Shown one piece after another: positions 3,305 to 62,948 of a stretch of DNA of 64,000 nucleotides. The position numbers and the translations under genes are program-made. The notes under the pieces were generated by a model. That model was not told the DNA's origin. It saw nothing but the letters and a program-made list of their open reading frames with translations, and searched no databases. Each line of letters starts with the position of its first letter. Positions within the stretch are counted from its first letter, which is position 1. This DNA is from Candidatus Pacearchaeota archaeon (lineage in GTDB: Archaea > Nanobdellota > Nanobdellia > Pacearchaeales > GW2011-AR1): contig JBBDJP010000001.1 in NCBI GenBank assembly GCA_040879805.1, forward strand, positions 66,173 to 130,172. The letters are read 5' to 3'.

Positions 3305-3877
3305 ATGGTCAAAGGAATGTATCATTATTTAAGAAAGGCTTGGAAAAAGCCAGACAAGAAGACACTCCGAGAAAGAATGGTTGAATGGAGAAAATCTCCA
3401 GTGGTTGTAAAAGTTGATAAACCCTTAAGAATCGATCGTGCACGATCTCTTGGTTATAAAAACAAGAAAGGATTTGTTGTCGCGAGAATTAAAATTAAAA
3501 GGGGAGGTCACAAAAGATCTAGACCCAATAAAGGAAGAAGAAGTAAAAGACTTCATACGAGAAAAAATCTTAGAATGAACTATAAATGGATTGCTGAACA
3601 AAGAGTTGCAAGAAAATTCTCAAACCTTGAAGTTCTTAATTCTTATATGATTGGAAAGGATGGTATACATTATTTCTATGAAGTTATTCTTGTAGATCCA
3701 AAAAGACCCGAAATAAAAAATGACAAAGATATGAAAAAGTTTGTAAATTTAAACAATAAAAAGAGAGCCATGAGGGGAATTACAAGTTCTGGGAAAAAAT
3801 CAAGAGGTCTTAGAAATAAATCCAAAGAGAACAAAGCCAGACCAAGTCTAAGAGCCAATAAAAGAAGAGGAAAATAA
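3305..3877 (+). CDS. rpl15e: 50S ribosomal protein L15e.
   Basis: Strong similarity to L15e: YLRKAWKKPD...VEWRKSPVVVKVDKPLRIDRARSLGYKNKKGFVVARIKIKRGG...LEVLNSYMIGKDG. Confidence 0.85.
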   Translation: MVKGMYHYLRKAWKKPDKKTLRERMVEWRKSPVVVKVDKPLRIDRARSLGYKNKKGFVVARIKIKRGGHKRSRPNKGRRSKRLHTRKNLRMNYKWIAEQRVARKFSNLEVLNSYMIGKDGIHYFYEVILVDPKRPEIKNDKDMKKFVNLNNKKRAMRGITSSGKKSRGLRNKSKENKARPSLRANKRRGK

Positions 3878-3919
3878 ACAAACTTAAAAACCACTTCTTC
3901 TTTAATATCAAAAGAAAAA

Positions 3920-4153
3920 ATGGTAAATTATTATATTTTTGGAATTTTAGGTTTAATATCTATTATTCTTGGAACTTTCATATTATCTTTAAAAAAACAG
4001 GTTGACCGAAAAAAAGTATATCCTTTCTTGTTCTTAGGAGGCGTATTTTTATTTTTATACAGTATTTACATAGATGATATTATTTTTATGATACTTCAAG
4101 GAACTTATACTCTTGTAGTTGCTTATAATATCTTTAAAATTTACTCTAAATAA
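3920..4153 (+). CDS. Small hydrophobic (2-TM) protein, hypothetical.
   Basis: 77-aa ORF with two hydrophobic helices. Confidence 0.25.
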   Translation: MVNYYIFGILGLISIILGTFILSLKKQVDRKKVYPFLFLGGVFLFLYSIYIDDIIFMILQGTYTLVVAYNIFKIYSK

Positions 4154-4154
4154 T

Positions 4155-5864: not shown

Positions 5865-6373
5865 TTAATAAAATCCACAAAACTCTCTTCACTAACCACT
5901 TCTTTCCCTTTATATTTTATCTCTCCCACGAAATAATCATCTCTACTTAACAAAGCTTCATAAAAAATATTGTCTCCTGAATTTTTTGGAAGATCTAAAA
6001 TTCTTTTTTTAGGAATCCAGAGGGGAATACCTTCATCTCCTGCTTTAAGAGTTCCTCCATATTCTTCTGTAGAAAAAAGGTAAATATAATAGTCTTCAGG
6101 ATTATCCCAATTATCAAAGATTCTTTCTTCATTAAGAAATGTTATCTGTCCTCTAATTGAATGGTTAATCATTTTGATCCCGGTTTCCTCTTCACACTCT
6201 CTGACTGCAGACTCCAGTTTGCCGTGAGAATTTTCCATTTCACCATCATTTATTTTTCCTCCTGGAAGTGTGAAAAGTCCAGAATTTGGGTCATTTTCTC
6301 TTTTAAATTTCTTTATCATCAAAACCCTTTCTCGCTCTTTATCTAAGACATAAGACATTGTTCCATATAACAT
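5861..6373 (-). CDS. NUDIX hydrolase.
   Basis: Nudix box GGKINDGEMENSHGKLESAVRECEEETGI (Gx5Ex7REUxEExGU). Confidence 0.8.
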   Translation of the reverse strand: MLYGTMSYVLDKERERVLMIKKFKRENDPNSGLFTLPGGKINDGEMENSHGKLESAVRECEEETGIKMINHSIRGQITFLNEERIFDNWDNPEDYYIYLFSTEEYGGTLKAGDEGIPLWIPKKRILDLPKNSGDNIFYEALLSRDDYFVGEIKYKGKEVVSEESFVDFIN

Positions 6374-6435
6374 AGCTTATTTTAGAAGAGAATACTAATA
6401 AAGATTTATGCTATGAAAAACATATGTTTTCAAAG

Positions 6436-6470
6436 CCTTTATAAAGGCCAATTTCCCTTTATAAATAGTC
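6436..6470 (+). promoter_or_regulatory. Putative tbp promoter: two TATA-like elements (TTTATAAA at about 6438 and TTTATAAATA at about 6459) just upstream of the likely tbp start.
   Basis: Archaeal TATA consensus-like sequences 15-45 nt upstream of the ATG at 6482. The ORF track extends the ORF through this region, which is unlikely to be coding. Confidence 0.35.
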
Positions 6471-6481
6471 TTGATTTAAAA

Positions 6482-7105
6482 ATGGCAAAGAAAAAAGATA
6501 CTAAAAAAAAGACTAGAAGGAAGAAAAAAAGCAACTATAAAATCCAAAATATCGTTGCAACAACTTCTCTTGAAAAACCTATTCCTCTAACAAAACTTGC
6601 AAGAACTCAACCAAACACTGAATACAATCCTGAAACTTTTCCTGGACTAGTATTAAGAATCAAAGAACCTAAATCTGCAGTCCTTGTTTTTAGTTCAGGG
6701 AACCTCGTATGTACTGGGACTAAGTCAGTTGCCCAAGTAAAAAGGGTTATACAAGCAGTGATAAAACAACTGAAAAAGATTAATGTGAATATAACTACAA
6801 AACCAAAAATAACTGTGCAAAATATAGTTGCGTCAGGAACAATAAATCTTGACTTAAATCTCAACTTCCTTGCACTTGAAATGAAAAATACAGAATATGA
6901 ACCTGAACAATTTCCGGGGCTTGTTTACAAACTTATAGAACCAAATGCAACTTTCCTCCTTTTTAGCAATGGAAAACTTGTTTGTACTGGAACAAAAAAC
7001 AGGAAACAACTAGAATTCAGCATGACACAACTTTTAAAGGATGTTAAAATTATACTAAAAGATTACGAAGCATGGAAAAAAGAACGTAGAAAACAGTGGA
7101 CTTAA
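6482..7105 (+). CDS. tbp: TATA-box binding protein with a short basic N-terminal extension.
   Basis: Two TBP direct repeats (IQNIVATT...LVCTGTKS and VQNIVASG...LVCTGTKN). Start taken at MAKKKDTKKK. Confidence 0.9.
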   Translation: MAKKKDTKKKTRRKKKSNYKIQNIVATTSLEKPIPLTKLARTQPNTEYNPETFPGLVLRIKEPKSAVLVFSSGNLVCTGTKSVAQVKRVIQAVIKQLKKINVNITTKPKITVQNIVASGTINLDLNLNFLALEMKNTEYEPEQFPGLVYKLIEPNATFLLFSNGKLVCTGTKNRKQLEFSMTQLLKDVKIILKDYEAWKKERRKQWT

Positions 7106-7157
7106 ACTAAATTTCTAAAAACTCAATATTTAAAAAATACAAAGTCCATAGTATTTT

Positions 7158-7460
7158 ATGGTTAATCTCTTTAAAAATTTTAAGAAAATAGGTAAAAAAA
7201 CAAATTTTAGGGCATTAATTTATGGTATGTTTTCAAACTGGGGACTTATAGTTCTTTCCAATATAATTGGTTCAATATTTACAAACACCATTGGAATAGA
7301 CCTTGTAAGAAAATTCATCCCTGCACTATACTTATTAATTGGAATAGCTTTCTATTTCCCTTCTCCGAAATCAAGAGATTTTAGAATTGGATATATTTTA
7401 GCGTTCGTAATCGGACTTATACTCATAACTTTATTCTATTATCCTATTCTAATATCTTAA
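7158..7460 (+). CDS. Small integral membrane protein, hypothetical.
   Basis: Three predicted hydrophobic helices. No motif. Confidence 0.3.
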   Translation: MVNLFKNFKKIGKKTNFRALIYGMFSNWGLIVLSNIIGSIFTNTIGIDLVRKFIPALYLLIGIAFYFPSPKSRDFRIGYILAFVIGLILITLFYYPILIS

Positions 7461-7526
7461 CTCTATTTTCTAAACTATTCTGTAATTTATAATAAAGTAT
7501 AAAAACAATAACTATATTCTCTAAAC

Positions 7527-9566
7527 ATGGATCCTCAAATTCAATCTGGAAAAAGCAACAAAGGGAAAAAGGATGATTTAATGATTGAAGCAAAAAACTT
7601 TTTTGAATTTCATAAAAAAGAGATTGGAAAATCAATAAGAAGGGGTAAAAGTGTTATCAACACTGATTTTACTCAGCTTACAGAATTTTCGAACAAACTT
7701 TCAGAAGAGATTCTGACAAATCCTGAAGAAACTTTGAGAATTGTTGAAATTGCAATAGAAGAAACAGGACTAATAGATAATGTTAGGGTCAGACTACATA
7801 ATTTACCCAAAAGTCAAGAAGTCAAAGTTAGAAATATCCGTTCTAAAAACATTAATGAAATGATTGTTATTGAAGGTATTGTAAAACAGGCCTCAGATGT
7901 AAGGCCCCAAATAGTAAATGCAAAATTTGAATGTCCTTCTTGTGGAACTGTTACGCCTGTTCTCCAAATAGAAAAAAAATTTAGAGAACCTTCAAGATGT
8001 TCTTGTGGAAGAAGGGGTGGATTTAAATTAATAAGTAAAGATCTTGTTGATACTCAAAGACTTGTAATTGAAGAAGCTCCAGAAACTCTTTCGGGAGGAG
8101 AACAACCAAAAAGAATAAACATCTTCCTAAAAGAAGATCTTGTCGAACCCAAAATGGAAGAAAAAACGACTCCTGGAAGCAGAGTTAAAGTTATTGGAGT
8201 TCTTAAGGAGGTTCCAGTGCCTTTACGTTCGGGAGGATTATCAACCCGATTTGAACTTGCAATAGAATCTAATAATATAATCCCTCTTGAAGAAACTTTT
8301 GAGGAACTAGATATTGGCGAAGAAGATGAAAAACAAATAATTGAACTTTCACATGATCCAAAAATATTTGAAAAATTAACCCAAAGCATAATTCCCAGTG
8401 TTTGGGGATACACTGAAATAAAACAATCTTTAGTTTTGCAATTATTTGGAGGAGTCACAAAAATTCATACTGATGGACAACGAAGTAGAGGAGATCTTCA
8501 TATCCTTTTAATTGGAGATCCTGGTGTTGCAAAATCTGCAACTCTTGGATTTATGGCAAGAATTTCTCCTAAGGGAAGATATGTTGTAGGTAAATCTGCT
8601 TCTGGTGCAGGACTTACTGCTACTGTAGTGAGGGATGAATACCTTAGAGGGTGGTCTATAGAAGCAGGAGCTATGGCTCTAGCAAACAAAGGCCTTGTTT
8701 GTATTGATGAACTTGAAAAAATGGATCCTAATGACAGAAGCGCCATGCATGAGGCTATGGAACAGCAAACGATCACTATAAGTAAGGCAAATGTTCAAGC
8801 AACACTACGTGCAGAAACATCTGTGCTTGCTGCAGCAAACCCAAAATTTGGTAGATTTGATCCCTATCAATCAATAGCTCAACAAATTGACCTTCCTCCA
8901 ACTCTTATCAACCGATTTGATGTTATATTCCCTTTAAGAGACCTTCCAGACAGAAAAAAAGATGAAAAAATTGCGAGTCACGTTCTCGATGAACATAAAA
9001 AAAAGGGGAGAGATATGATCATCCCAAGAGATCTCCTTAGAAAATATGTGGCTTACACAAAACAAAAAATCAATCCAATTTTAGAAGATGAGACTGTCAA
9101 AGAAATAAAAAAATTCTATGTTGATTTAAGAAATATGCCTGTTTCAACAGAAGGAACTTTAAGACCCATTCCAATTTCTGCAAGGCAGCTACAAGCACTA
9201 ATAAGGATGTCTGAGGCCTCTGCAAAAATGAGGTTAAGTGATAGGGTAACTCTTGAAGATGCAAACAGGGCAATAAAAATAATGAAATATTATCTTTCTC
9301 AAGTTGGTTATGATTATGAATCAAAAACATTTGATATAGATAGGGGAACTGGTGGAATGCCTGCATCACAAAGAAACAAGGTCTTTCTTGTAAGAGATAC
9401 AATTACCAAATTAGAAGATAAACTTGGAAAAATGGTTCCTCGAGAAGAATTAGAACAAGAACTTGAAGGAAAAATGACTAAGGATGAAATTGATGAGGCA
9501 ATAACCAAACTTGACATAAGTGGAGTAATCTTCAAACCTAAAAAAGGGTATGTTTCAAGAACTTAA
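7527..9566 (+). CDS. mcm: MCM replicative helicase.
   Basis: Zn finger CPSCG...CSCG, Walker A IGDPGVAKSA, Walker B CIDELEKM, arginine finger, C-terminal winged helix. Confidence 0.9.
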   Translation: MDPQIQSGKSNKGKKDDLMIEAKNFFEFHKKEIGKSIRRGKSVINTDFTQLTEFSNKLSEEILTNPEETLRIVEIAIEETGLIDNVRVRLHNLPKSQEVKVRNIRSKNINEMIVIEGIVKQASDVRPQIVNAKFECPSCGTVTPVLQIEKKFREPSRCSCGRRGGFKLISKDLVDTQRLVIEEAPETLSGGEQPKRINIFLKEDLVEPKMEEKTTPGSRVKVIGVLKEVPVPLRSGGLSTRFELAIESNNIIPLEETFEELDIGEEDEKQIIELSHDPKIFEKLTQSIIPSVWGYTEIKQSLVLQLFGGVTKIHTDGQRSRGDLHILLIGDPGVAKSATLGFMARISPKGRYVVGKSASGAGLTATVVRDEYLRGWSIEAGAMALANKGLVCIDELEKMDPNDRSAMHEAMEQQTITISKANVQATLRAETSVLAAANPKFGRFDPYQSIAQQIDLPPTLINRFDVIFPLRDLPDRKKDEKIASHVLDEHKKKGRDMIIPRDLLRKYVAYTKQKINPILEDETVKEIKKFYVDLRNMPVSTEGTLRPIPISARQLQALIRMSEASAKMRLSDRVTLEDANRAIKIMKYYLSQVGYDYESKTFDIDRGTGGMPASQRNKVFLVRDTITKLEDKLGKMVPREELEQELEGKMTKDEIDEAITKLDISGVIFKPKKGYVSRT

Positions 9567-10026
9567 GATGTTATCAAAATTGGTTTGCCAATTATGGATG
9601 AAAAATCCAAAGGATTATTTTTTAAATAAATCTCTGATCACACACATAAATGAACATCCCTTGGAAGAATCTTGTATAGAATATTTTGTGAAAAATAAAT
9701 TTATTGGATACAGAAATAGTGCCTTGGGGGCTTCTGCATTCTTAAAAATAGAAAATGAAAAATGGGATTGGCATCTTTATAATAAATTTTTATATTCTAT
9801 TAATTTCAACAAAAATCTTTTAGAAAATGAAAAGATTGGTGCGTTCATACATGAAATAACTCATGCACATTATTTGAAATCTTTTAATGTTACTGAGTGG
9901 GATGAAAAATTAATTTCAAGTGAAGGGGAAAGATTCTTATCTGAAAATGAAAAATTTTGTGTAGAGATGTATGAATTATCAATTAACAAACTTTGGAAAA
10001 ATTTAGATAAAGATAATAGCATCTAG
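9550..10026 (+). CDS. Hypothetical protein with an HExxH motif (HEITHAHY). Possible small zinc-metallopeptidase-like protein.
   Basis: Single HExxH motif. Overlaps the mcm stop by 17 nt. No other family signature. Confidence 0.3.
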   Translation: MFQELKMLSKLVCQLWMKNPKDYFLNKSLITHINEHPLEESCIEYFVKNKFIGYRNSALGASAFLKIENEKWDWHLYNKFLYSINFNKNLLENEKIGAFIHEITHAHYLKSFNVTEWDEKLISSEGERFLSENEKFCVEMYELSINKLWKNLDKDNSI

Positions 10027-10028
10027 AA

Positions 10029-10087
10029 AATTTTAGCTAAAGACTTAAAAATCAAAAACCCCAAATAATTTTAGCTAAAGACTTAAA
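10029..10087 (+). repeat. 21-bp perfect direct repeat AATTTTAGCTAAAGACTTAAA (10029-10049 and 10067-10087).
   Basis: Read directly. Lies between the HExxH ORF and the RPA-like gene. Confidence 0.7.
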
Positions 10088-10102
10088 TTTGCAAAAATAA
10101 AA

Positions 10103-10753
10103 ATGGCTGAACAACAATATAAAAGAAACATTGCATACAAACTAAGAATTGGAGATCTTTTAATGGGAAAACCTGTGAACAATGGAGAAAGATTTGGTTT
10201 TCTAGAACTTGGAGATAAAAAAATAGTTAGAGTTAATATAGTAGGAAATATTATCGAAAGATATGAAAGTGAGGGAGAAAGAAAATATTTATTTTTGACG
10301 CTTGACGATGGTTCTGGACAAATAAAACTTAAAATTTTTGGAGATGATTCTGATAGATTTAAGGAAGTAGTACAGGGACAAACAGTAGTCGTCATAGGGA
10401 CTCTAAGATACTGGAATGATGAACTTTATATTTCTCCAGAAATTATAAGGGATCTGGACCCAAAATATCTTTTGATTAGGAAATTGGAAACTGAAAAAAA
10501 TAAAACTCAAAGTTCCTCTAACAAGGATGATTCTGACAATGTCCTAAGTGAAAAAGAACAAACAACTGCAATTAAAGATAAAATTCTTGATCTGATTAAA
10601 TCTGCGGAAGAAGATGGGGGTATTGAAACTAAAAAAGTTCTTGAAAGATTCTCGGATGTCTCTCCAGACATAATAAATCAGGAGATAAAAAAATTCCTTG
10701 AGGAAGGAATTGCTTTTGAACCACGACCAGGGAAAATTAGATACTTGGGTTAG
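10103..10753 (+). CDS. OB-fold nucleic-acid-binding protein with a C-terminal winged-helix-like domain (RPA32/RPA-associated-like).
   Basis: OB-fold pattern (KLRIGDLL...VRVNIVGNIIE...LFLTLDDGSGQIKLKIFGD...VVVIGTLRYWNDELYISPEII), then a K/E linker and a C-terminal helix-rich domain. Adjacent to mcm. Confidence 0.4.
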   Translation: MAEQQYKRNIAYKLRIGDLLMGKPVNNGERFGFLELGDKKIVRVNIVGNIIERYESEGERKYLFLTLDDGSGQIKLKIFGDDSDRFKEVVQGQTVVVIGTLRYWNDELYISPEIIRDLDPKYLLIRKLETEKNKTQSSSNKDDSDNVLSEKEQTTAIKDKILDLIKSAEEDGGIETKKVLERFSDVSPDIINQEIKKFLEEGIAFEPRPGKIRYLG

Positions 10754-30030: not shown

Positions 30031-30837
30031 TTACTTTATTGAACAGACTACTTTATCTAGAGAATCATTTAATTTTCCTGCCATAAATGTATAAAATCCT
30101 TGCTCGCCGCCTGTTGAACCATTACATATTTCTCCACTAGACTTCAATCTTTTCCAATCATAAACTGCTTTATCAAGAAAATCAAAATAAGTGTATCTCT
30201 CTCCAGAATTGATTATTGGTGTAGGAATTCCATTAAAATCCAAAATAATATCTTGAAGTGTTCTTGAAGTTCTTCCATTTCCATCCTGAAAAGGATGAAT
30301 TCTTACGAGATGTAAATGTGCAAAAAAGGATGCAAGTATTTGACTAATTTTGTCAGGATATTTTAGTTTTTTATTTAATGAATCTACAAACCAAGGCATC
30401 TCTTTCTCTCTAACCTTATAGGGGTCTGGAGGTGTTGTAGTTGCTCCAAGAATCCTAGTTCCAGAATCTCGGTAATTTGCCAAACTTTCACTGTAAATTT
30501 CAGGAGTTATTCTAATAGATAATTCTTTGATAAAATCCTCATTTACCTCTCCTTTAAAAAATTTTTTCCCCCAATTAAATGCATTTTCTATATTTTCAAC
30601 ACCTTCTTTAATTGTTTGTTTATTACAATTTCGAGGAATAGAATAACTTGATCCTGAATTGGGATATTCTATCCTAAATGACTGATATTGGGCTGCTTTG
30701 AGAATTTTATTATCTAATATCTTTCCTTTTTTTAGAATTGATTCTGGAGACATCCTTCTTTCTAAATAATTTAACTTTCTAGATATCTCTCCCAATAAAC
30801 CTTTTTCAACATATTTCATAATAAAAAGACTATTCAA
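30031..30837 (-). CDS. Fic/Doc-family protein (AMPylase-type Fic motif).
   Basis: Canonical Fic motif HPFQDGNGRTSR. Confidence 0.85.
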   Translation of the reverse strand: MNSLFIMKYVEKGLLGEISRKLNYLERRMSPESILKKGKILDNKILKAAQYQSFRIEYPNSGSSYSIPRNCNKQTIKEGVENIENAFNWGKKFFKGEVNEDFIKELSIRITPEIYSESLANYRDSGTRILGATTTPPDPYKVREKEMPWFVDSLNKKLKYPDKISQILASFFAHLHLVRIHPFQDGNGRTSRTLQDIILDFNGIPTPIINSGERYTYFDFLDKAVYDWKRLKSSGEICNGSTGGEQGFYTFMAGKLNDSLDKVVCSIK

Positions 30838-35076: not shown

Positions 35077-36132
35077 CTATCTCTTAGATGATTTAAGAAT
35101 AGATTCAATATTTTCTTTGAATCTCTCAATATCTTTTGCTTTTATTTGTCCCCCAACAGCATCTTCATGGCCTCCCCCTCTAGCACCTTCAATACCTTCA
35201 ATTGCCTTGACAAGAACATTCCTACACTTTTTTCCCCTCATAGAAATATTCCCTTTAATTCCTTTAACATATATTACTGCTATAATCTTTTTAGGGAAAA
35301 AATAGCTCAACTTGTTCGATAAATCTCCACTCATACTCATATCTCCACCATATTTAAAAAAAATAAATTTTTTATTCTCTCTTCCAATTGAAATTGCCTT
35401 ATCAAAAATTTTCTGAAACTTCAAATCTATCACTTTAAATCTTTCATGCATTGTATGGTTCTTTGTATTTTCTTCAAGAGCGTCATAAGGATTTTTTGCA
35501 TCAATTAAGAATCTTATCATATTCATTACATTAGTTGTTCTATCTTTTAGACCAAATCCAATCATTCTTGCAATTTTTCCAATTTGAGATTTATAAAATA
35601 TATCTAATGGGTCTTTTGATTTAACAACAAGGTCGGGATATTTCTTTTCAAAATTTTCATAGAAATCTGGGACAAACTTATCTGAGATACATCCTGCAAC
35701 CGCAATCCACATATCTTCCTTTCTTCCTGAAATTTGATAACATAATGCAGTAACAGGTTCTTCTTTTTTTGGTTTGTTAAAAATAGGATTATAATAATTG
35801 ACAAAAGAGGGAACTAAGTTTTTATCAATCTCATGATGATCTATCCAAACAATTGGAATGTTGATCTTTTCAGCCTCTTCAAAGAATTTTTCAGAAACAA
35901 CTGGTTTATCTAAAATGAAAATATAGTCTGAATTGAATTCACTTGCTTTTGATAGATAATCTTTAGACAAATCTGGAAAGGATTTAATTGGAACTCCCTT
36001 CCCCCTACCTATATATTTACGAAGTAAAAGGAAAGAACATAAACCGTCTTGATCATTATCAAAAAGAAAAAGGGGGTTTTGAGCCTTACTCAAATGTTCC
36101 TTAATCTCCTGGACTTCTTTTTTTGTGAGCAT
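35077..36132 (-). CDS. DHH-DHHA1 phosphoesterase (NrnA/stand-alone DHH-type).
   Basis: DHH motifs DNDQDG, IDHH. DHHA1 GGGH motif (GGGHEDAVGG) at the C-terminus. Confidence 0.75.
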   Translation of the reverse strand: MLTKKEVQEIKEHLSKAQNPLFLFDNDQDGLCSFLLLRKYIGRGKGVPIKSFPDLSKDYLSKASEFNSDYIFILDKPVVSEKFFEEAEKINIPIVWIDHHEIDKNLVPSFVNYYNPIFNKPKKEEPVTALCYQISGRKEDMWIAVAGCISDKFVPDFYENFEKKYPDLVVKSKDPLDIFYKSQIGKIARMIGFGLKDRTTNVMNMIRFLIDAKNPYDALEENTKNHTMHERFKVIDLKFQKIFDKAISIGRENKKFIFFKYGGDMSMSGDLSNKLSYFFPKKIIAVIYVKGIKGNISMRGKKCRNVLVKAIEGIEGARGGGHEDAVGGQIKAKDIERFKENIESILKSSKR

Positions 36133-36167
36133 TTAATAAAGGATTCAGAGAAGTATTTAAGTTTAAT

Positions 36168-37289
36168 CTAAATTTTCTTTCCCATCAGAATTTTTTCTTT
36201 TAGATTTTTTAGGCTCTTTAAAAGTGAATCAACAAAATTTTCATTCTTAAAAACAGATTTCAAATCTTCTTTATCCAAATTAAAAATATTATCTAATGTT
36301 TTGAATTTTTCTAGAAGAATTTTTATATCTTTTTCAAGTATGTTGGTTTTATTGAGGATTCTCATACCTCTAGGAGAAACAGAACTATCATGGAGCTCGT
36401 CAAAAAGAACTCGCAAAACATTTGAAGTTTCAACAAGAAAATCAAAATTCATATTATTTAAAGTTTCATTTACTTTTAGATGATCTTCACCAAAATAATC
36501 TCTCAAAATTGATTTTCTTTCGTTAGATAAATTTTTAGTAAGTTCCTTTAATCTCATACTCACAATAGTTCCTTCTTTACCTAGTTCAGACAGGTACTCT
36601 TTAACTTTCTCAGATATTCTTCTTATCATTTCAAGAGTTTGAAGAACATTACAAACATCACTCATAGTAGTCAAATTGGTTATTTCAAGTATGTTTAAAT
36701 GTGACGAAAGGTCATTAAAAACTTCTTTCTGTTTCTCCAGAATCTGTAAAGTTTCAGCAGCCCTCCTCAAAATTTCAGAAGTTTCTTCAAGATAATAATT
36801 TTCATCTTTAAAATAAAGGGTTATTTTGTTCTTTCTTTCTGAAACTGCAACTGAAATAGTATCAAATTGTTTAGCTGTCCTCTCCGCTGCCTTGTGCCTT
36901 GTCCCAGTTTCACTAGTCTTTATCTTCATATCTGGTGCCAAAAGCGTGTTCGCATAAAGAATTTTTTTCATATCTTCTGAGATTATTATTGCTCCATCCA
37001 TTTTAGCAAGCTCCACAAGTTTCTGGGAACTAAATTTTGAATTAATTTTAAATCCTCCTTCAACAATATCTAAAAGACCCTCTTTTTTTATAACAATCAA
37101 CGCCCCCATCCTTGCCCTGAGTATATCATCAAGCGCAACTCTTATCGAGGATCCTGGGGAAAAAAACTTTAAGACATCAAAAATATTTTTTTCACGTGAC
37201 ACTTCTGCAGATTCACTTAATTTCTCCTTTGATTTTTGATTTGTATCTTTTTTTCTTAGAACAACTTCTTGACTAGATTTCTTTGTCAT
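36168..37289 (-). CDS. disA: DisA-like diadenylate cyclase (DAC domain, helical linker and C-terminal domain).
   Basis: DAC motifs DGAIII and GTRHKAAERT (RHR-type). Three-domain length of 373 aa. Confidence 0.7.
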   Translation of the reverse strand: MTKKSSQEVVLRKKDTNQKSKEKLSESAEVSREKNIFDVLKFFSPGSSIRVALDDILRARMGALIVIKKEGLLDIVEGGFKINSKFSSQKLVELAKMDGAIIISEDMKKILYANTLLAPDMKIKTSETGTRHKAAERTAKQFDTISVAVSERKNKITLYFKDENYYLEETSEILRRAAETLQILEKQKEVFNDLSSHLNILEITNLTTMSDVCNVLQTLEMIRRISEKVKEYLSELGKEGTIVSMRLKELTKNLSNERKSILRDYFGEDHLKVNETLNNMNFDFLVETSNVLRVLFDELHDSSVSPRGMRILNKTNILEKDIKILLEKFKTLDNIFNLDKEDLKSVFKNENFVDSLLKSLKNLKEKILMGKKI

Positions 37290-37341
37290 AAAAAATTAAA
37301 TAGATTGGAATATATAAATATTTATGAAAAATTTAGAAATA

Positions 37342-38334
37342 TTATCTTTTTTTCGCGAAAGTTTTTGCCACAATTAATGGAAACAATATAGTCGCATCTC
37401 CATGAACTTTTATTGATTCGGAATTTTTACTCTTGACTTTACCCCATGAAACTGCCTCATCAGGTCTGGCATTGGAATCTGCGCCATCCCATTCTTCACC
37501 AGAATTTATGTAAACCGCATAATCTGCACCGTTCCTCATCATATTTGCATTACAAATATGATGCTTCATGATTCCAGAGCCAAGAAGGATAATCCCTGTT
37601 TTCTTTCTTGTTATAGTATATTCATTTAATTTATGTATATCTCCTACTATATCAAGTTTAAAATCAGGATTCTTATACATAAAAAAATGGATCATGTCTC
37701 CAGTACTCCCATCAGTAATTGCAGGACAATAAACATCTATATCATTTTTCCAACACCAATACAAAATACTTTCCTCATTGTCAATTTTCTTACCAAGAAT
37801 TTTCACAAATTCGGATACAGAGATTATTTTTCCGTTTTCTTTCTGATCTTTATTAATTATCTCTAAAAGAGGATTCATAAATTCTTCATATTTTATATAT
37901 CTTGAATTCGGAACAAAAATATTTCCAGTTCTATTTATTCCTTTAGATCTAAGAAGCTCTCCCGAAGCAGAAAATTTACCTATTTTAAAATCACCAAGAC
38001 ATTTTATTATATCTTCTTCTATACCTCCTGCAGTTGTTACAAAAACATCAATCATTTTGTTCTTTGCAAGATACCTAACAATATCTCTTACACCTGAAGT
38101 AATCAAATTTGAGCTGCAACCCAGAAAAACAGTTACTTTTTCTTTAATCATTTTTTCTATGATCTTTACCGCCTTTCCAAAATGACTTGCCTGGAAACCT
38201 GTTGATAAATAACTATCCAAAATTTTCTCATAATTAACTCCTTTATCAAAATCATAACCTTTTACTGAAATTCCTTCTACTTCTTTAGATTCCTTAAATA
38301 TGCTCTCTCTCGAAATTTTTTCCGATTCTTTCAT
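37342..38334 (-). CDS. dys: Deoxyhypusine synthase.
   Basis: Conserved DHS core (ITSGVRDIVRYLAKNKMIDVFVTTAGGIEEDIIKC, GDMIHF...). Confidence 0.85.
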   Translation of the reverse strand: MKESEKISRESIFKESKEVEGISVKGYDFDKGVNYEKILDSYLSTGFQASHFGKAVKIIEKMIKEKVTVFLGCSSNLITSGVRDIVRYLAKNKMIDVFVTTAGGIEEDIIKCLGDFKIGKFSASGELLRSKGINRTGNIFVPNSRYIKYEEFMNPLLEIINKDQKENGKIISVSEFVKILGKKIDNEESILYWCWKNDIDVYCPAITDGSTGDMIHFFMYKNPDFKLDIVGDIHKLNEYTITRKKTGIILLGSGIMKHHICNANMMRNGADYAVYINSGEEWDGADSNARPDEAVSWGKVKSKNSESIKVHGDATILFPLIVAKTFAKKR

Positions 38335-46985: not shown

Positions 46986-47345
46986 TCACCCCAAATAAAA
47001 CCCTTTATGCCCATCGCCTTTTTTTCTTGGAAGAATATGGAAATGCAAATGTGGAACCCTCTGACCTGCAACCTTCCCATTATTAACTGTGATGTTAAAC
47101 CCTTCAGCCCTGTATTTTTTTAATAATTTCTTTGCAACCTTTTTCACAAATTTCAAATACCCTTCAGAAGTTTCGTCATCCAAATTTAAAATTGTCTCAA
47201 AATGTTTTTTTGGAATTACTAAAGTGTGTCCTTCTCCAACCGGATTCGCATCCGCAAACGCCAAAAATCTTTCATTTTCATACACTTTCTCTGCAGGAAC
47301 CTCTCCACTAACTATTTTACAAAAAATGCAATCACTCTCTATCAT
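46986..47345 (-). CDS. HIT-family (histidine triad) protein.
   Basis: HLHFHILPR histidine triad. Confidence 0.85.
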   Translation of the reverse strand: MIESDCIFCKIVSGEVPAEKVYENERFLAFADANPVGEGHTLVIPKKHFETILNLDDETSEGYLKFVKKVAKKLLKKYRAEGFNITVNNGKVAGQRVPHLHFHILPRKKGDGHKGFYLG

Positions 47346-56219: not shown

Positions 56220-59200
56220 TTAATTTAGTTCTTCTTCATAAGCAACTATGTTTGAAACATACTGAAGAACAGAAGAGGGAATATTTTCACATCTCTTCCA
56301 CTCTTCTAATTCACAAGCATTCTGAATATTTCCCCTCCCCCAATTATAAGCTGCAAGAGAAATCTTTTTAGAATCTTCAAAAGAATTCCCTCTCCCTAAA
56401 TAATATTCTTGTAACATATCAAAATATATTGTTCCAACATAAATATTCTTCCTTGGCTTAAGAATGTCCCTTTCAAAATCATTTATATTCACACTTAAAA
56501 TAATTAAAGAAGAATTATCATACCTTGCTTTCACATCTGTTGTTGCAACTTTTGTAACTTGCATAAGGCCATATGAACCTCCTGCACTTTCTACTGCTCC
56601 AGGATCTGCATAAGATTCCTGGATAATTATGGCCTTAATCAAATTTTCCTCAATACCATATTCCTGAGATACTTCCCTTATAAGACCTTCATAAGTTCCT
56701 AAATTATCAAAAAGATCTGGATCATTCATCCTACTCTCTACTTGATTTGGTTCCGGAAGTATTGGTCCTCCAGATATATTGTTATCTTCCCTAGAAATAA
56801 AATTCCCTCGTGGAAAACCTTTTTCAGTATCTAATGAAAAAATAATTGCTGCACCTTCTAAAAAATCATCAATATTTTCTAGGTTTTGAATTAATTCGGA
56901 ATTTATGTCTGTAGGCTCTCTTCCTTCAAATTTTCCAGAATTGACTTCAATTGTGTCTGTTCTCATCCAATTATTCCTATCTGGAGACCATTGCCACCCT
57001 TCTTGACTACTAAATCTAAAATAAAGATTTGTTTCTCCAATATTAATTAATGACCCTAAGCTAAATCCATCTCCTAAGACTGTAAACTCTACAGGAATAA
57101 AATTTTGTCCTTTTTCACCTATTTTCTTTAAAGTTACTTTCTCAGTAGACAACTCTGAATCTAAAAAGATATAATTTTCTTCATTCAACCAAGCACGATA
57201 AATTAATAATTCTAATCCTTCCAAGTACCCAACCTCTAAAAGAAGAGATGTCCAATACTTGTTCTCTAGATTCATATTCTCTGAAGGGAGGGGAGTTCCA
57301 TCAGGCATTGTTGCAACAAACGTCGCGTCTGAATCTATGGTTTCAAAATTTATATCAATTTCCTGATAAAAACTCTCTTCAGAAAAATTAGGTAAAGATC
57401 TATCTGTGTTTTCAAAATCAGATTCAAAAATTCCTACATTAAACCATTCTCCACCTTCTTCCGGAAGATCCCCCTCCATAGACCAATACCATCCATTTTC
57501 TATGAATGTATAATATATATTTTCTCCTGTAATTCTCCTATCTCTAAATTCAAAGATAGGATAATCCCTTTCTATATTCTGAAGCTCATTTCTTGATGCC
57601 GGACCTGAAAAATTATCTCTAAAATCTAATACATCCTCTTCATCATCTTCTCCTTCTTCTATTTGCTGTTCTCTCAAACTTTGAAGAACTCCTTTCACCA
57701 AATCTTTGTAAGCGTTTCCTCTGGATAAAATAAGGAATCCTTTTTCATAACTAAGGAAAACTCTTTCTATATTTTTATTTATTATCTCAATTCTCTCTAG
57801 AGGGTTCTCGTTTTGTCTTTCTCTTTGATTAATTTCTCTTGCAAGTTCCCTAAACTCAGAAGCACTAAGAGAATCTGTCTCATTTCTCAAGATTTCTAAA
57901 TAATCTTCAATTACATCTCCTACAACTTGATCTTCAATTCCTGTATGCCTTATTATATCTCTTGAACTTTCAGTATCAAGCCAACAACCAATTTGAGAGT
58001 TTCCACAATGTCCTACTCTTACCCATCTTGCATTTTCTGTTCCTGCTCTTGAATCTGTAGAAGATCCAGGGTCATCAGTAGAACAAATTCTTATAATTCC
58101 CCTATTTTGAAGCCCAGGATCAATAAAATTTTCTGCACCAGACTGTAGGCTTGGATTTAAAAAACTTCTAAGATTGGGCGTCCCTGAAACACATTCTGAT
58201 TCTGAATTAATGTCTGTATTTGAAACTTGATCTGCAATATACTCATCATTAAGATAATTTACAGCAAAATCTGTTGATACTCTTCCAAATCCACACTCTT
58301 CTTGATTGTTAACAACAATACACATCTCATTAAATCCTGAAGGTGCTGTAAATGTACATGGTTGATTTGGATTATCACCACAATTAGCAGTCTCTCCTAC
58401 TGGAACAAATCCTGAAGCAACTATCCTTCTTGAAGATGTGTCTTGGAAAAATGCTCCTCCTGTACTCCTCAAATAAACTTGGTAATAAGCAGGAATATCC
58501 TCTCCCGCATAAATATTGAAAAATACTTTATACTGAGATGTTGGAGGTACCGTTGCTGTTGAAAATTCCATTTCATCAAATCTTCCATGGAACTGTGGAG
58601 GAACTCTCGGACTAGTCAAAGAATCAAGAAGGCTACCTCCATCTGGTCCTGCAATTGAAACCCAATTTCTACAAATCTCTGTACCTACACCTTCTATAGA
58701 TCTTGCTTGGAATGCATCTGCCGAATTAACAGCATATTCCTGAATAAAGAACTCTGCCGAATCTGCTGCATTCTGCCAAGCTTGCCTTGCATTGAGATAT
58801 TCTCCTCCTCCCCTAGTTGGCTTTTGTCCTAAAATCTCTCCAAGAACAGAAGGAATGACTGCATTGGCAAGAGGAAGGCCTTGTCTCCAAACAAAATCAC
58901 ACATATAAATTGAATGTAATTGATCACATATTCCTATCTGTTGACCTGTTTCAAGACTGTGTTCAAGACAACTCTGATAATCTTCTAAAATATTTGCATA
59001 CCCTTGACTTGCAGCATAAACTCCTGAAACACATATTGGAATCTTTACCTCCGGGAAATTAGGTGCACAAAGAGCAAGACTTCCTGCAATTCCAGACTGA
59101 ACAACATCTGAAACAGGATACTTTCCTCCTAAATCACAACGAGAGCTAGGACAAACAAAAGGATCACAAATATTAAACATTAAATTACAATCTCTTGCAG

Positions 59201-62200
59201 ACATGAAATCTTGACATTGAATTTCAGGGATTCCTACTGAGGGTTCACCTACAGATATGGTTCTTCCAAAAAGACTAATCTCTCTCAATCCAGACTCATG
59301 CCTTCTTGAAGCCTCTGCAATTGCCTCAACAGCTCTACTAGCTAATTGAGAAGCTTCATTCTCACTTAAACCAGGAAATTGGTTATAAGGTTGATTTGTG
59401 GAAGGATTCAGTCCAACACAGTCATCATCACCAACTCCTAAGAAAAACTCTTCTCTCCCATTACTACCAACATTACAAAGGTAGAAACTAGAGACTCTTC
59501 CGGAATCATCATATGCCTTCAAAGAACCTCCTATTGGAAGATTAGATTTCATAGCAGCATACCATCCATCTCCAAGTCCTGAAGGTGCAGGAAAAGGAAC
59601 AATTGCAGGCAAACCTGCATATTGGCCCGACTCATAATATCTCAATTCACAATTTGGACATTCATTTTCATAATAATTTCTATCTCGGAACTCAAACATA
59701 AATCTCTCTTGAATTTCACTCTTAATTTCCCCTTCCTCAATTTTATTACCTGACGTATGATAAACCTCTAAAACTCTATACCTGCCTCTTCCAGTATCTT
59801 CTAATTGAACAATGTATTCTTCACCCCCATACACAAGAGTTTGAGCTGGAACTCCTGAAGGAATATCTACTAATTTTCCTGCTGTCTTACCTCCTCCATA
59901 AACATCTATGATAGATTCTCCTCTTGTGTGAACACTAACATCAAGTCCTTTTAACGCTTCAGAAAGATTATTTTTAAGATTGGTCTCTACTTCAGACTTT
60001 TTTGTGTTTAAATGAATATCTGTAAGATAAGATTTAATCTCACTTTCCGCAACAGACCTAATAACAGGATCATCAGAATTCAAAAGTCGTGCATTCAATT
60101 GCAAGTCTCTTGCTTGAGAAACATAAGTAGTCTCTGAATTTATGCCTTGAATTATTTCTTGTGCTTCCACGATATTTCCATTCACATCTATCTCAAAATT
60201 TTCAAGATTTTGATTCAACTCATTTCGATAAGACTCACTAGTAAGTCTCTTTAAAAATTCTTCATCATTTACTATGTCTTCACCAAGGAAACGGGAGGTA
60301 GTGATCCCTTCCCTAAGATTTTTCATCTCCTTATTATGTTCTTCAATTATATTTGAAACTTCTTTTACAGAATCTTCTATATTCTTATTATTCTCAAGGA
60401 AACAAGAATCAAGGTTTCTATATTCTCCAGAATTTACCATCCCCTCACATCTTTCTGTCCATCCGCCATCTCCACGCATAATCTTTTGCCTAGCAATTCC
60501 TTCTCCATGTAAATTTGAAATAAAACTTTTCAAAACAAGTCCTGCACCAACACCTAAACAAGCCTTGTTTCCGATATCCACTGTTGTCTTAAGCCCTTCA
60601 TTGATCCTTCTCCAGGTTTCGAGAGTCTCCTCTAAAGAGTTTATTCTCTCTTCAGTTTTTTCTGGAGAAAGCATGAGAAAATCATTTCTTTTTTCAATCC
60701 CAATCCTAAATGGAAATTCTGCTTGAGTTTCTTGATAATCTACATTCGGAATAATTGAAACACGTGCAACTTTTCTCAAATTAATATTATCAACAGAAAT
60801 TCTATAATTATTTTCTCCTACAACTTCAAAAGAATTTAGATTTATCCTTTGAGTGTTTCCAATAGTCGTGACTTGACTTCCTCTATCTATTCCTCTTATA
60901 TTAAAAATAGCATTATTATCATTTAATTCTTGTAGACTAATAAATTCAGACTCTGAAAGATAAATTGTCTGATCTTTTCTTATTCCTGTTTTTCTTCCAC
61001 TGTAATTTCCTGCATTGCTAACAGTTATATCTACACTATAATCTTCTAGTGAAGGCTCACTAATTCTGTCTAAAGATATACTATATGTTTTTCCTTTAAT
61101 TAAGACTGTCTGGGCAGATGTTGTTTGACTTGAAAGTTTTTCTTGTTGACTACAAATATCAGGCATTCCTCTTCCTGAGTTAGGATATGCATCTTCAAAT
61201 TCTTCGCACAATTCAACAACAGTTCTCATTTGACTTGCAGCAGAATGAATCTCTATTAAATTCCTCAATGCACTTTCACCAAAAACAGGTTCTGTTCCAG
61301 AGGGATAACTTTCACCAGAAAAACTTTGTAAAACATCTTCATAATCTCTTACTGCATTTTCATAATCTCTTCTGTGCTCTTCACTTAAACCCGAAAGCCC
61401 AGAGTCCACAGCATCTGCAAAACCTATGATTTTAAACTTATTTGAGTAAGCATCTTCATTTCCTACGATTTCATTAAACTGGGTAAGAGCTCCGCTTGGA
61501 GAAGGAAACATTTCAAAACTGCCGTCCGCCTTGACAAGTCCTGCAGGAGCATCTCCAGCTACCATCCAGTTAACAAAACTTCCAACAAATCCAAAACCTA
61601 AAGAAACAATTCTTTCCAAAGAATCTACAATAACATTTCCCGACTCAAATTCAACAACATTCATAATACTGGGTAAGCTCCTATAAACAGCTCTTTGCTT
61701 AAATTCTTCTGAAGTTTTGGCAGTACTCACAACTGGAACAAAAAACAACTCTTCTCCATCATCTTCTCCAATGTAACCTACATAGACATATTTTCCTGTT
61801 TCAGCGCCTTCTGAATCACGCCGAGAATACAATTGATCACCAACTCCTACTATAGATGATTCCCCATCTATTTCTATTTTTATATTTGGGCTAACTCTAA
61901 GATTTAATCTATTACTCCCTTCATCAACATTACAATCAACTTGAACTTCTTCAACAATTCCTTCTTTATTTATGCTTCTAACTTGACAATCATTATTAAG
62001 AAATTTGGCGCCTTCCCTTAAATCAAAAGCATCTCCATTGACTTCAATCGTTGCAGTTGTATCAGGATTTTCAACTCCATCCAGCCTTATTTCCATGGTC
62101 CCAACACAATAATCAAAACCAGGCATTGGAATTTCTCTTGATTTTTCCCCCACTAGGAGGTTTTCAGTTGTAACTTTTCTGTTTGCTGTTCTTGCCTGAG

Positions 62201-62948
62201 AATTTGTTTCTCTGTCAGAATAAATCGAAATTGAAGCACGATCATCACTAACACTTTCTGCCCTCAAATATCCTCTTCCTTGCCAAAACCCGTATCCTTT
62301 AAAATTTCTATCCCATTCTGTATCAGACATTACAGGAAGGTAAAATTGGGACCTTCCAACCCCAAATGCGTTCTGAACATCATATCTAATTCTTGCTGTC
62401 AAATTTCCTTCTACAAAATCAGGCATTTCAGATTCATTCCTTTGTTGTCTTAAAACAATAACAGCGTAACCAAGATTATCCAAAACTGGAGGATTATCTA
62501 GACCAATCTGCCCTCCAAATCTATTAAGGGCCGCTCTAGCAGAATGAAATCCAACTCCTGAAACTTCTCTAGGAAAATCTCCTGAAAAAGTAATTCTATC
62601 TATAGATCCTATATCAATTAAGGGATTTATTTGCGTACCAACAACAGGGCAAATGACTGGAACATTCTGATTCTCTAGAAGGTCGCTCCTAACTACTGAT
62701 GGTGAACATCCAATAGGAGAAATCTGAAGAATAAAATCTTGTCCTTCATGACACATCTGCCTGCTAAATGAAGGAGAAAATAGGGCATCATTTACAATAT
62801 TAGATTGTGAATTCTGGACGTAATTCCTTGAATAAGACGAAGACAGAAACTGTGCAGAAACAAAAAATGTGAGTAATATTAAAGACATGAAAACAAACCC
62901 AACTAAGAAAATCTTTTTCACACTTATATTTTTATTTTTGTATTTCAT
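56220..62948 (-). CDS. Giant (2242-aa) secreted/cell-surface protein with a C-terminal lytic transglycosylase (SLT, lysozyme-like) domain and a central Cys-rich region.
   Basis: N-terminal signal/TM (FLVGFVFMSLILLTFFVSAQF). C-terminal IIQESYADPGAVESAGGSYGLMQV...AYNWG matches the family-1 lytic transglycosylase motif (ES...AGAxGLMQ...AYNxG). Long G/S/N/D/E-rich, K-poor body. Several Cys clusters. Confidence 0.6.
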   Translation of the reverse strand: MKYKNKNISVKKIFLVGFVFMSLILLTFFVSAQFLSSSYSRNYVQNSQSNIVNDALFSPSFSRQMCHEGQDFILQISPIGCSPSVVRSDLLENQNVPVICPVVGTQINPLIDIGSIDRITFSGDFPREVSGVGFHSARAALNRFGGQIGLDNPPVLDNLGYAVIVLRQQRNESEMPDFVEGNLTARIRYDVQNAFGVGRSQFYLPVMSDTEWDRNFKGYGFWQGRGYLRAESVSDDRASISIYSDRETNSQARTANRKVTTENLLVGEKSREIPMPGFDYCVGTMEIRLDGVENPDTTATIEVNGDAFDLREGAKFLNNDCQVRSINKEGIVEEVQVDCNVDEGSNRLNLRVSPNIKIEIDGESSIVGVGDQLYSRRDSEGAETGKYVYVGYIGEDDGEELFFVPVVSTAKTSEEFKQRAVYRSLPSIMNVVEFESGNVIVDSLERIVSLGFGFVGSFVNWMVAGDAPAGLVKADGSFEMFPSPSGALTQFNEIVGNEDAYSNKFKIIGFADAVDSGLSGLSEEHRRDYENAVRDYEDVLQSFSGESYPSGTEPVFGESALRNLIEIHSAASQMRTVVELCEEFEDAYPNSGRGMPDICSQQEKLSSQTTSAQTVLIKGKTYSISLDRISEPSLEDYSVDITVSNAGNYSGRKTGIRKDQTIYLSESEFISLQELNDNNAIFNIRGIDRGSQVTTIGNTQRINLNSFEVVGENNYRISVDNINLRKVARVSIIPNVDYQETQAEFPFRIGIEKRNDFLMLSPEKTEERINSLEETLETWRRINEGLKTTVDIGNKACLGVGAGLVLKSFISNLHGEGIARQKIMRGDGGWTERCEGMVNSGEYRNLDSCFLENNKNIEDSVKEVSNIIEEHNKEMKNLREGITTSRFLGEDIVNDEEFLKRLTSESYRNELNQNLENFEIDVNGNIVEAQEIIQGINSETTYVSQARDLQLNARLLNSDDPVIRSVAESEIKSYLTDIHLNTKKSEVETNLKNNLSEALKGLDVSVHTRGESIIDVYGGGKTAGKLVDIPSGVPAQTLVYGGEEYIVQLEDTGRGRYRVLEVYHTSGNKIEEGEIKSEIQERFMFEFRDRNYYENECPNCELRYYESGQYAGLPAIVPFPAPSGLGDGWYAAMKSNLPIGGSLKAYDDSGRVSSFYLCNVGSNGREEFFLGVGDDDCVGLNPSTNQPYNQFPGLSENEASQLASRAVEAIAEASRRHESGLREISLFGRTISVGEPSVGIPEIQCQDFMSARDCNLMFNICDPFVCPSSRCDLGGKYPVSDVVQSGIAGSLALCAPNFPEVKIPICVSGVYAASQGYANILEDYQSCLEHSLETGQQIGICDQLHSIYMCDFVWRQGLPLANAVIPSVLGEILGQKPTRGGGEYLNARQAWQNAADSAEFFIQEYAVNSADAFQARSIEGVGTEICRNWVSIAGPDGGSLLDSLTSPRVPPQFHGRFDEMEFSTATVPPTSQYKVFFNIYAGEDIPAYYQVYLRSTGGAFFQDTSSRRIVASGFVPVGETANCGDNPNQPCTFTAPSGFNEMCIVVNNQEECGFGRVSTDFAVNYLNDEYIADQVSNTDINSESECVSGTPNLRSFLNPSLQSGAENFIDPGLQNRGIIRICSTDDPGSSTDSRAGTENARWVRVGHCGNSQIGCWLDTESSRDIIRHTGIEDQVVGDVIEDYLEILRNETDSLSASEFRELAREINQRERQNENPLERIEIINKNIERVFLSYEKGFLILSRGNAYKDLVKGVLQSLREQQIEEGEDDEEDVLDFRDNFSGPASRNELQNIERDYPIFEFRDRRITGENIYYTFIENGWYWSMEGDLPEEGGEWFNVGIFESDFENTDRSLPNFSEESFYQEIDINFETIDSDATFVATMPDGTPLPSENMNLENKYWTSLLLEVGYLEGLELLIYRAWLNEENYIFLDSELSTEKVTLKKIGEKGQNFIPVEFTVLGDGFSLGSLINIGETNLYFRFSSQEGWQWSPDRNNWMRTDTIEVNSGKFEGREPTDINSELIQNLENIDDFLEGAAIIFSLDTEKGFPRGNFISREDNNISGGPILPEPNQVESRMNDPDLFDNLGTYEGLIREVSQEYGIEENLIKAIIIQESYADPGAVESAGGSYGLMQVTKVATTDVKARYDNSSLIILSVNINDFERDILKPRKNIYVGTIYFDMLQEYYLGRGNSFEDSKKISLAAYNWGRGNIQNACELEEWKRCENIPSSVLQYVSNIVAYEEELN
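56223..56700 (-). other. SLT (lytic transglycosylase) catalytic domain within the giant protein (C-terminal ~150 aa).
   Basis: Catalytic Glu in QESYADP. Glycine-rich substrate-binding AGGSYGLMQV. AYNWGRGN motif. Confidence 0.6.

Follow-up and report, generated by a model that had tools for sequence, protein, structure and literature searches.

Does the diadenylate cyclase gene of a Pacearchaeota archaeon form, together with the phosphoesterase gene that follows it, a system that makes and clears cyclic di-AMP (c-di-AMP)? This question is raised by a 64,000-nucleotide (nt) stretch of DNA, referred to here as the window, from a metagenome-assembled genome of Candidatus Pacearchaeota, a DPANN archaeon (assembly GCA_040879805.1, contig JBBDJP010000001.1, positions 66,173 to 130,172). 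The window is an ordinary chromosomal stretch with a G+C content of ~31%, and it carries on its minus strand dys, encoding deoxyhypusine synthase, then disA, encoding a DisA-type cyclase, then a gene for a compact protein with DHH and DHHA1 domains (Table 1). A preliminary description, made from the letters alone, had presented the latter two as a cyclase/phosphodiesterase pair co-oriented with dys, and the gene calls, coordinates, shared orientation and 35-nt gap between disA and the DHH gene (36133-36167) were all confirmed. Overall, the pair exists and is conserved; the DHH enzyme, however, turned out to be of RecJ stock, dys a bystander, and the details of the motifs different. We consider it roughly 45% probable that the cassette joins a cyclase to a RecJ-derived hydrolase of NrnA size that clears pApA and c-di-AMP and has a housekeeping role besides; gene identities, family placement, catalytic residues and adjacency are what we saw, and from these the reading infers both enzymatic activities and their coupling.

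Judged by its sequence, disA genuinely encodes a cyclase of the DisA type, here in an archaeon. Its product scored 336.2 bits against the NCBIfam DisA equivalog NF010009 over residues 31-370 (cut-off 201) and aligned over residues 35-364 with T. maritima DisA (3c1y; E value 4.7e-62), with which it is collinear along its full length at ~38% identity; the DacZ model gave 22 bits against a cut-off of 430, in keeping with the subtype first proposed. The diadenylate cyclase (DAC) domain, the helical linker and the C-terminal helical domain follow one another as in the bacterial enzymes of T. maritima (3C1Y), M. tuberculosis (9Y4S) and B. subtilis, and an AlphaFold model (mean predicted local distance difference test score, pLDDT, of 82) aligned over ~347 columns with the M. 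tuberculosis and T. maritima structures (E 5e-25). The DGA motif that these bacterial proteins share was present, as had been described, and in the clade alignment it was invariant or nearly so along with T130, R131, H132 and S150-E151-R152; from these intact DGA, T-R-H and S-E-R positions we infer cyclase activity. The reported RHR motif, however, reads RHK in a T-R-H-K context, K133 being shared by 32 of the 34 members of the clade. In other archaeal subclades the third residue is Q; R occupies this position in the bacterial sequences and, among the archaeal ones, in P0511 alone.

The window DisA also departs from its bacterial counterparts at both ends. Its N-terminal 32 residues are predicted to be disordered and are rich in K and E, and its five-helix C-terminal domain, modelled at a pLDDT of ~88, has no recognisable helix-hairpin-helix (HhH) hairpins. 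The HhH signature went undetected there, the best Pfam match being HHH_5 at 13.7 bits (E 0.09), whereas the equivalent T. maritima segment, used as a control, scored 34.9 bits for HHH, 31.9 for HHH_2 and 29.2 for HHH_5; "VEGIGEKRARA" of T. maritima is swapped for "VFKNENFVDSL" in the window protein. The domain closes with a tail, NLKEKIL(M/V)GK (residues 362-373, window 36171-36206), whose LKEKIL-GK is invariant in the clade. This tail is found in the archaeal DisA proteins of clade A, to which the window protein belongs; neither clade B nor T. maritima DisA has it.

The protein encoded next to disA is, on the evidence of its catalytic residues, an active-type phosphoesterase. Pfam recognised DHHA1 at 38.5 bits (cut-off 25.9) and DHH at 27.5 bits, slightly below the cut-off of 28.1. 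We draw this conclusion because, in a family set of 105 diverse representatives with 27-61% identity to the window protein, D27, D29, D75, D98-H99-H100 and G320-G321-H322 were invariant in all 105, and G319, the first glycine of GGGH, was nearly so. The description of the gene product as a stand-alone DHH-DHHA1 enzyme with DHH and GGGH motifs was borne out, with the catalytic residues intact, but its assignment to the NrnA/Pde2/DhhP type was not. It shares with NrnA, Pde2, DhhP, CnpB/Rv2837c and TmPDE TM1595 the two-domain DHH-DHHA1 build, a length of ~310-350 amino acids (aa), the DHH and GGGH motifs and a host that also has a diadenylate cyclase, yet by both profile and fold it falls with RecJ and GAN, an outcome named in advance as overturning that assignment. 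A profile of the family matched the RecJ-Cdc45 structure 7bhi at 2.2e-19, MjRecJ2 at 1e-17, Pfu RecJ at 4.8e-16 and GAN at 1.2e-14, as opposed to 2.2e-6 for S. aureus NrnA, 1.9e-4 for TmPDE and 0.11 for Rv2837c. In the predicted model (pLDDT 93.7) the two domains are connected by a 28-residue linker helix like that of the RecJ core, and a Foldseek search with this model placed M. thermautotrophicus RecJ-Cdc45 first (7bjq, 1.1e-16), with M. jannaschii RecJ2, bacterial RecJ cores, Pfu RecJ and GAN at 1e-15 to 1e-13, an archaeal DHH-type phosphatase of 3'-phosphoadenosine 5'-phosphate (PAP) at 7.8e-14 (8A8K; template modelling score 0.69 on the target) and NrnA/Pde2 at 3e-9 to 1e-7. This PAP phosphatase, from Methanothermococcus thermolithotrophicus, is likewise a compact archaeal DHH-DHHA1 protein of similar length, matched by the profile almost over its full length (E 7.8e-8), but it scores below the RecJ group and the window has no sulfate-assimilation context. 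To our knowledge, the known NrnA-type enzymes are not encoded beside disA in Mycobacterium or Thermotoga.

Within the RecJ branch, the protein is best described from these comparisons as a distinct compact, paralogous subfamily, with 250 cluster representatives at an E value below 1e-30, almost all of which are 335-360 aa long. Archaeal RecJ, GAN and RecJ-Cdc45 (7BHI, 5GHT, 5X4H and MjRecJ2 6TVV) are its closest relatives in sequence and fold and have the same DxDxDG-type motif I and long interdomain helix, but they span ~430-480 aa; the window protein is ~100 residues shorter than canonical archaeal RecJ, and its region between motif IV and DHHA1 is reduced. Although the NCBIfam model RecJ_archaeal (NF053576) matched all 105 family members and the NrnA model only six, none reached any curated cut-off: the window protein scored 32 bits against a RecJ_archaeal cut-off of 360, and the best family member had an E value of 1.9e-25. 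We ruled out that this mini-DHH protein is the GAN/Cdc45 orthologue because a separate canonical RecJ/GAN of 445 aa coexists with it at locus L075, directly downstream of the mini-DHH gene (5128-6465, plus strand; 321 bits for NF053576, 1.8e-51 for Pfu RecJ and 9.8e-50 for GAN). L075 thus carries two RecJ-branch paralogues in tandem after disA.

Conservation of the junction was assessed in two sets of loci. Of 459 species genomes with a match to the DHH protein, 80 loci were fetched and 71 were informative; disA was present in 35 of these and stood immediately upstream of the DHH gene in every one. Among 73 informative metagenome loci selected by disA, the DHH gene followed immediately in 60 and lay within 2 kilobases (kb) in five more. 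The spacer between the two genes had a median of 45 nt and did not exceed 10 nt in 28 of the 92 pairs, some of which overlap. In clade A the pair sits in a housekeeping block of 13 genes running AlaRS, two open reading frames (ORFs), TFE, rhomboid, SpoIIM, a small ORF, dys, disA where present, the DHH gene, ProRS, HtrA and GatD. Outside clade A, the order and orientation of disA and the DHH gene were kept in six of the nine loci examined while all other neighbours differed (Table 1); at one of them, L081, DisA is 39% and the DHH protein 44% identical to the window proteins. The disA-DHH junction outlives all other synteny, and its persistence amid unrelated flanking genes argues for a functional link, one that would be asymmetric in that disA hardly ever occurs without the DHH gene, which itself often occurs without disA. 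DisA and the DHH enzyme probably work together. The divergence of the two proteins is correlated (Spearman 0.54) and the presence of disA is patchy on the DHH tree, which fits vertical inheritance with repeated loss. As a member of the module dys was ruled out, since it does not adjoin the pair at L081, L166, L168, L169 or L171; together with SpoIIM, rhomboid, TFE, ProRS, HtrA and GatD it belongs to the conserved housekeeping block and is a neighbour outside the cassette. One of the disA-selected metagenome loci, L105, proved to be bacterial and served as a control; it reads clpC-radA-disA-PIN/TRAM, the classical order, and has no DHH gene, so that the window and bacterial disA genes differ in their neighbours as well.

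The co-transcription of disA and the DHH gene that had been raised as a possibility appears doubtful in the window, given that TATA-like boxes lie ~25 nt before both ATGs. One of these, TTTATATA, is a putative disA promoter which, from the usual geometry of archaeal promoters, would give a leaderless mRNA; the other, CTTAAATA, falls within the 35-nt spacer. Among relatives, TATA-like octamers at -30 to -21 of the DHH gene were seen in 16 of 40 with a spacer of 30-70 nt and in 14 of 44 lacking disA, and in none of the 28 whose spacer is 10 nt or shorter. Over the 80 nt preceding the DHH ATGs of loci L001-L165 such octamers were sharply concentrated at 21-30 nt and near absent elsewhere, a pattern suggesting that transcripts in these genomes are leaderless as a rule. 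Because the box is so positioned in both the window and its relatives, the window DHH gene probably has a leaderless-type promoter of its own as well. Co-transcription is likely in the relatives with tight spacers. Scans for sigma-70 promoters and intrinsic terminators, whose models are unsuited to an archaeon, showed no enrichment.

Our preferred explanation takes the two genes to form a cassette conserved among DPANN archaea of the Pacearchaeota type, in which DisA would condense two ATP into c-di-AMP. The DHH enzyme would be a metal-dependent phosphoesterase that arose from the archaeal RecJ lineage and shrank to the size of NrnA/Pde2, and its most likely job would be to hydrolyse short 5'-phosphorylated oligonucleotides, including pApA and possibly c-di-AMP itself, so turning the signal off. 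It would also carry out a housekeeping task of the nanoRNase or pAp-phosphatase type, which would explain why it is retained after disA has been lost. Several observations weigh against this explanation. No disA lies within 6 kb of the DHH gene in 36 of the 71 DHH-selected loci, where dys abuts the DHH gene in 24, another gene stands between them in eight (in six of these a pyridoxal phosphate (PLP)-dependent decarboxylase gene), and neither dys nor disA is upstream in four; as roughly half of the relatives without disA at the locus retain the DHH gene, its product, on this distribution, is not a dedicated partner of disA. Conservation of the DHH protein is alike with and without disA (0.738 vs 0.721), and we found no DHH sites that discriminate disA-positive from disA-negative relatives. 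Conversely, the archaeal disA loci L167, L173 and L174 have no DHH gene. The DHH family sits with RecJ/GAN and not with NrnA, Pde2, TmPDE or Rv2837c, Pfam shows the window DHH protein, whose DHH domain begins at residue 25, to lack a TrkA_N or RCK_N domain, the former being part of the sole characterised archaeal phosphodiesterase, and the replacement of RHR by RHK or RHQ in archaeal DisA casts some doubt on cyclase activity.

The RecJ affinity of the DHH protein admits a different account, in which it is a RecJ-like single-strand exonuclease acting in repair or at forks, DisA is its checkpoint sensor, and c-di-AMP is degraded by other means. We judge this pairing for DNA integrity unlikely. 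The grouping of the family with RecJ-Cdc45, RecJ2, Pfu RecJ and GAN and its RecJ-core-like linker helix speak for it, as does genomic context: bacterial disA adjoins radA at L105, the Lon_C protein that follows disA at L173 is of the RadA/Sms C-terminal domain type and has DNA ligase and endonuclease V genes nearby, and the disA-DHH pair lies 2 kb from MCM at L081. However, the clade-A DisA proteins, that of the window included, have lost the hairpin signature thought to bind DNA, Pfam detected no OB or other nucleic-acid-binding domain in the DHH protein, and this protein, short by comparison with canonical archaeal RecJ, coexists with it. Should the DHH enzyme prove to be a nuclease, disA and its neighbour would correspond, on the archaeal side, to the radA-disA module for DNA integrity in bacteria.

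A more deflationary account, which strikes us as distinctly improbable, holds that disA was inserted once beside a housekeeping DHH gene and that the junction is still unbroken, with no functional coupling. The entire AlaRS-GatD block is strongly syntenic in clade A, the DHH gene persists with unchanged conservation where disA is missing, and each gene in the window has a TATA-like box of its own, all as this account would have it. Its difficulty is that the disA-DHH order survives outside clade A among quite different neighbours (HIT/MCM, ackA/PKD, L15e) and that many of the spacers are 0-10 nt or overlapping. It is also conceivable, and in our estimate very improbable, that archaeal DisA is no longer a cyclase and instead serves the DHH enzyme as a nucleotide-binding regulator or scaffold. 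The K or Q found as third residue of the RHR motif in every archaeal sequence examined except P0511, the loss of the HhH signature in clade A and the clade-specific invariant C-terminal tail, suggestive of a new partner, are consistent with such a change, but R to K is a conservative replacement, the other active-site positions listed above are invariant or nearly so, and the score lies far above the DisA equivalog cut-off.

Returning to the cyclase-hydrolase reading, we consider doubtful a bolder form of it, in which Pacearchaeota-type DPANN archaea would run a self-contained, DisA-based c-di-AMP circuit whose phosphodiesterase (PDE) was recruited independently from the RecJ/Cdc45 lineage rather than from the NrnA/GdpP type, and whose DisA sensor was rewired through loss of the HhH hairpins and gain of the invariant tail. 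Stand-alone DHH-DHHA1 enzymes and an archaeal TrkA_N-DHH-DHHA1 PDE degrade c-di-AMP or pApA (PMC10249747, PMC12699388). A 2023 review described c-di-AMP degradation in archaea as unknown and put forward NrnA-like DHH-DHHA1 proteins as candidates (PMC10249747); as relayed in a 2025 paper, Jin et al. 2023 reported a TrkA_N-DHH-DHHA1 PDE in Pyrococcus/Thermococcus (PMC12699388). Archaeal c-di-AMP signalling has been described as euryarchaeal and based on DacZ, with dacZ absent from DPANN (PMC12699388). The window resembles the system of this PyaPDE type in combining an archaeal diadenylate cyclase with a DHH-DHHA1 enzyme and differs from it in that the cyclase is of the DisA and not the DacZ type, the DHH protein lacks TrkA_N and the lineage is DPANN. 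Our searches for papers on Pacearchaeota and RecJ, or on Pacearchaeota and diadenylate cyclase, found none, and NCBI annotation already labels the window proteins DisA and "DHH family phosphoesterase". Cyclases of the DisA type are widespread across Pacearchaeota, and time and again the gene that comes next encodes one particular compact DHH enzyme of the RecJ branch. If that enzyme acts as a PDE, c-di-AMP signalling would extend to genome-reduced symbiotic archaea and a PDE lineage would be added; if the circuit with a recruited PDE is real, no second-messenger system would have been described in DPANN before it, and it would bring a new class of c-di-AMP/pApA hydrolase.

Within the window, neither disA nor the DHH gene has a paralogue, and a Pfam scan of ~55 window ORFs revealed no candidate c-di-AMP receptor or further PDE (RCK/TrkA or PgpH-type HD). 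The ydaO-type riboswitches to which the preliminary description had pointed were absent from the window at Rfam gathering thresholds, the sole matches being seven tRNAs.

Table 1. Positions of the genes, motifs and domains in the window, with the surroundings of disA at selected loci of relatives (coordinates in the lower rows are those of the locus named)
Feature	Coordinates	Strand	Description
dys	37342..38334	-	Deoxyhypusine synthase, 330 aa; Pfam DS 372.6 bits; NCBIfam PRK03971 394 bits (cut-off 380), TIGR00321 345.8 bits (cut-off 304)
disA	36168..37289	-	DisA-type diadenylate cyclase, 373 aa; 52 nt from dys
DHH gene	35077..36132	-	Compact RecJ-branch DHH-DHHA1 phosphoesterase, 351 aa
TATA-like box TTTATATA	37311..37318	-	Centre ~25 nt upstream of disA ATG; read from sequence
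TATA-like box CTTAAATA	36154..36161	-	Centre ~25 nt upstream of DHH ATG
DAC catalytic domain of DisA	36804..37136	-	aa 52-162; Pfam PF02457, 97.7 bits
DGA motif of DisA	36990-36998	-	D98-G99-A100; invariant in 34/34 clade members
RHK motif of DisA	36891-36899	-	R131-H132-K133; conservation assessed across clade
DisA-linker helical domain	36405..36791	-	aa 167-295; Pfam PF10635, 106.9 bits
C-terminal five-helix domain of DisA	36171..36404	-	aa 296-373; homologous to bacterial DisA HhH domain, without GIG hairpin
DNDQDG motif of DHH protein	36043-36060	-	DxDxDG-type motif I
DHH motif of DHH protein	35833-35841	-	D98-H99-H100
GGGH motif of DHH protein	35167-35178	-	G319-G320-G321-H322
L081, disA-DHH			Context TBP-MCM ... 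HIT
L166, disA-DHH			Context mTERF
L168 and L169, disA-DHH			Context acetate kinase ... PKD
L171, disA-DHH			Context L15e ... transglutaminase
L170, disA, one small gene, DHH			dys now after DHH
L167, disA without DHH	6011-8067		Directly after disA, where sister loci have DHH, are inserted LAGLIDADG and reverse-transcriptase genes (group II intron-like)
L173, disA without DHH	4001-5838		disA, then 254-aa Lon_C-domain protein; DNA ligase and endonuclease V nearby
L174, disA without DHH			disA, then secreted or membrane protein

The wider neighbourhood in the window is one of housekeeping genes, comprising MetRS, L15e, DNA ligase, TBP, MCM, FtsZ, GatABC/GatDE, AspRS and ProRS, and further neighbours are HtrA, SpoIIM, rhomboid, TFE, AlaRS and TFB. 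The cluster of TBP, MCM and an OB-fold gene (window 6413-10753) recurs at L081 (79-3413), where the disA-DHH pair lies 2 kb onward, and at L171 and L173 disA is found near L15e and DNA ligase, genes that stand beside TBP-MCM in the window (3305-5864). The proximity of disA to replication genes may be what is left of an earlier gene order. The window also has a gene for a HIT-family nucleotide hydrolase (46986-47345, minus strand), and a HIT gene (4393-4794) lies immediately upstream of disA at L081, on the opposite strand.

In a subset of relatives, a gene for a PLP-dependent decarboxylase of ~350 aa of the Orn/DAP/Arg type (Orn_Arg_deC_N, 53 bits) lies between dys and disA or the DHH gene; these loci are L031 (4863-5975), L062, L067, L078, L068, L059, L034, L038, L058, L075 and L030. 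The dys genes of relatives are of two types, scoring either ~400-600 bits or ~115-215 bits against the window dys.

That the locus is an anti-phage defence cassette was ruled out, dys, DisA and the DHH protein all being without a PADLOC match. Elsewhere in the window, a Fic-domain protein (30031-30837, minus strand) matches the candidate defence models SoFic (E 1.7e-15) and PDC-S04 (E 9.3e-15) of PADLOC, and a Fic gene is also found 1.8 kb downstream of disA at L174. An ORF of 2242 aa (56220-62948, minus strand) has as its sole Pfam match a C-terminal SLT lytic transglycosylase domain (residues 2089-2218, 62 bits). Its product resembles a putative surface protein of giant size that carries a domain for cutting murein; the archaeon itself has no murein, and the target could possibly be a bacterial host.

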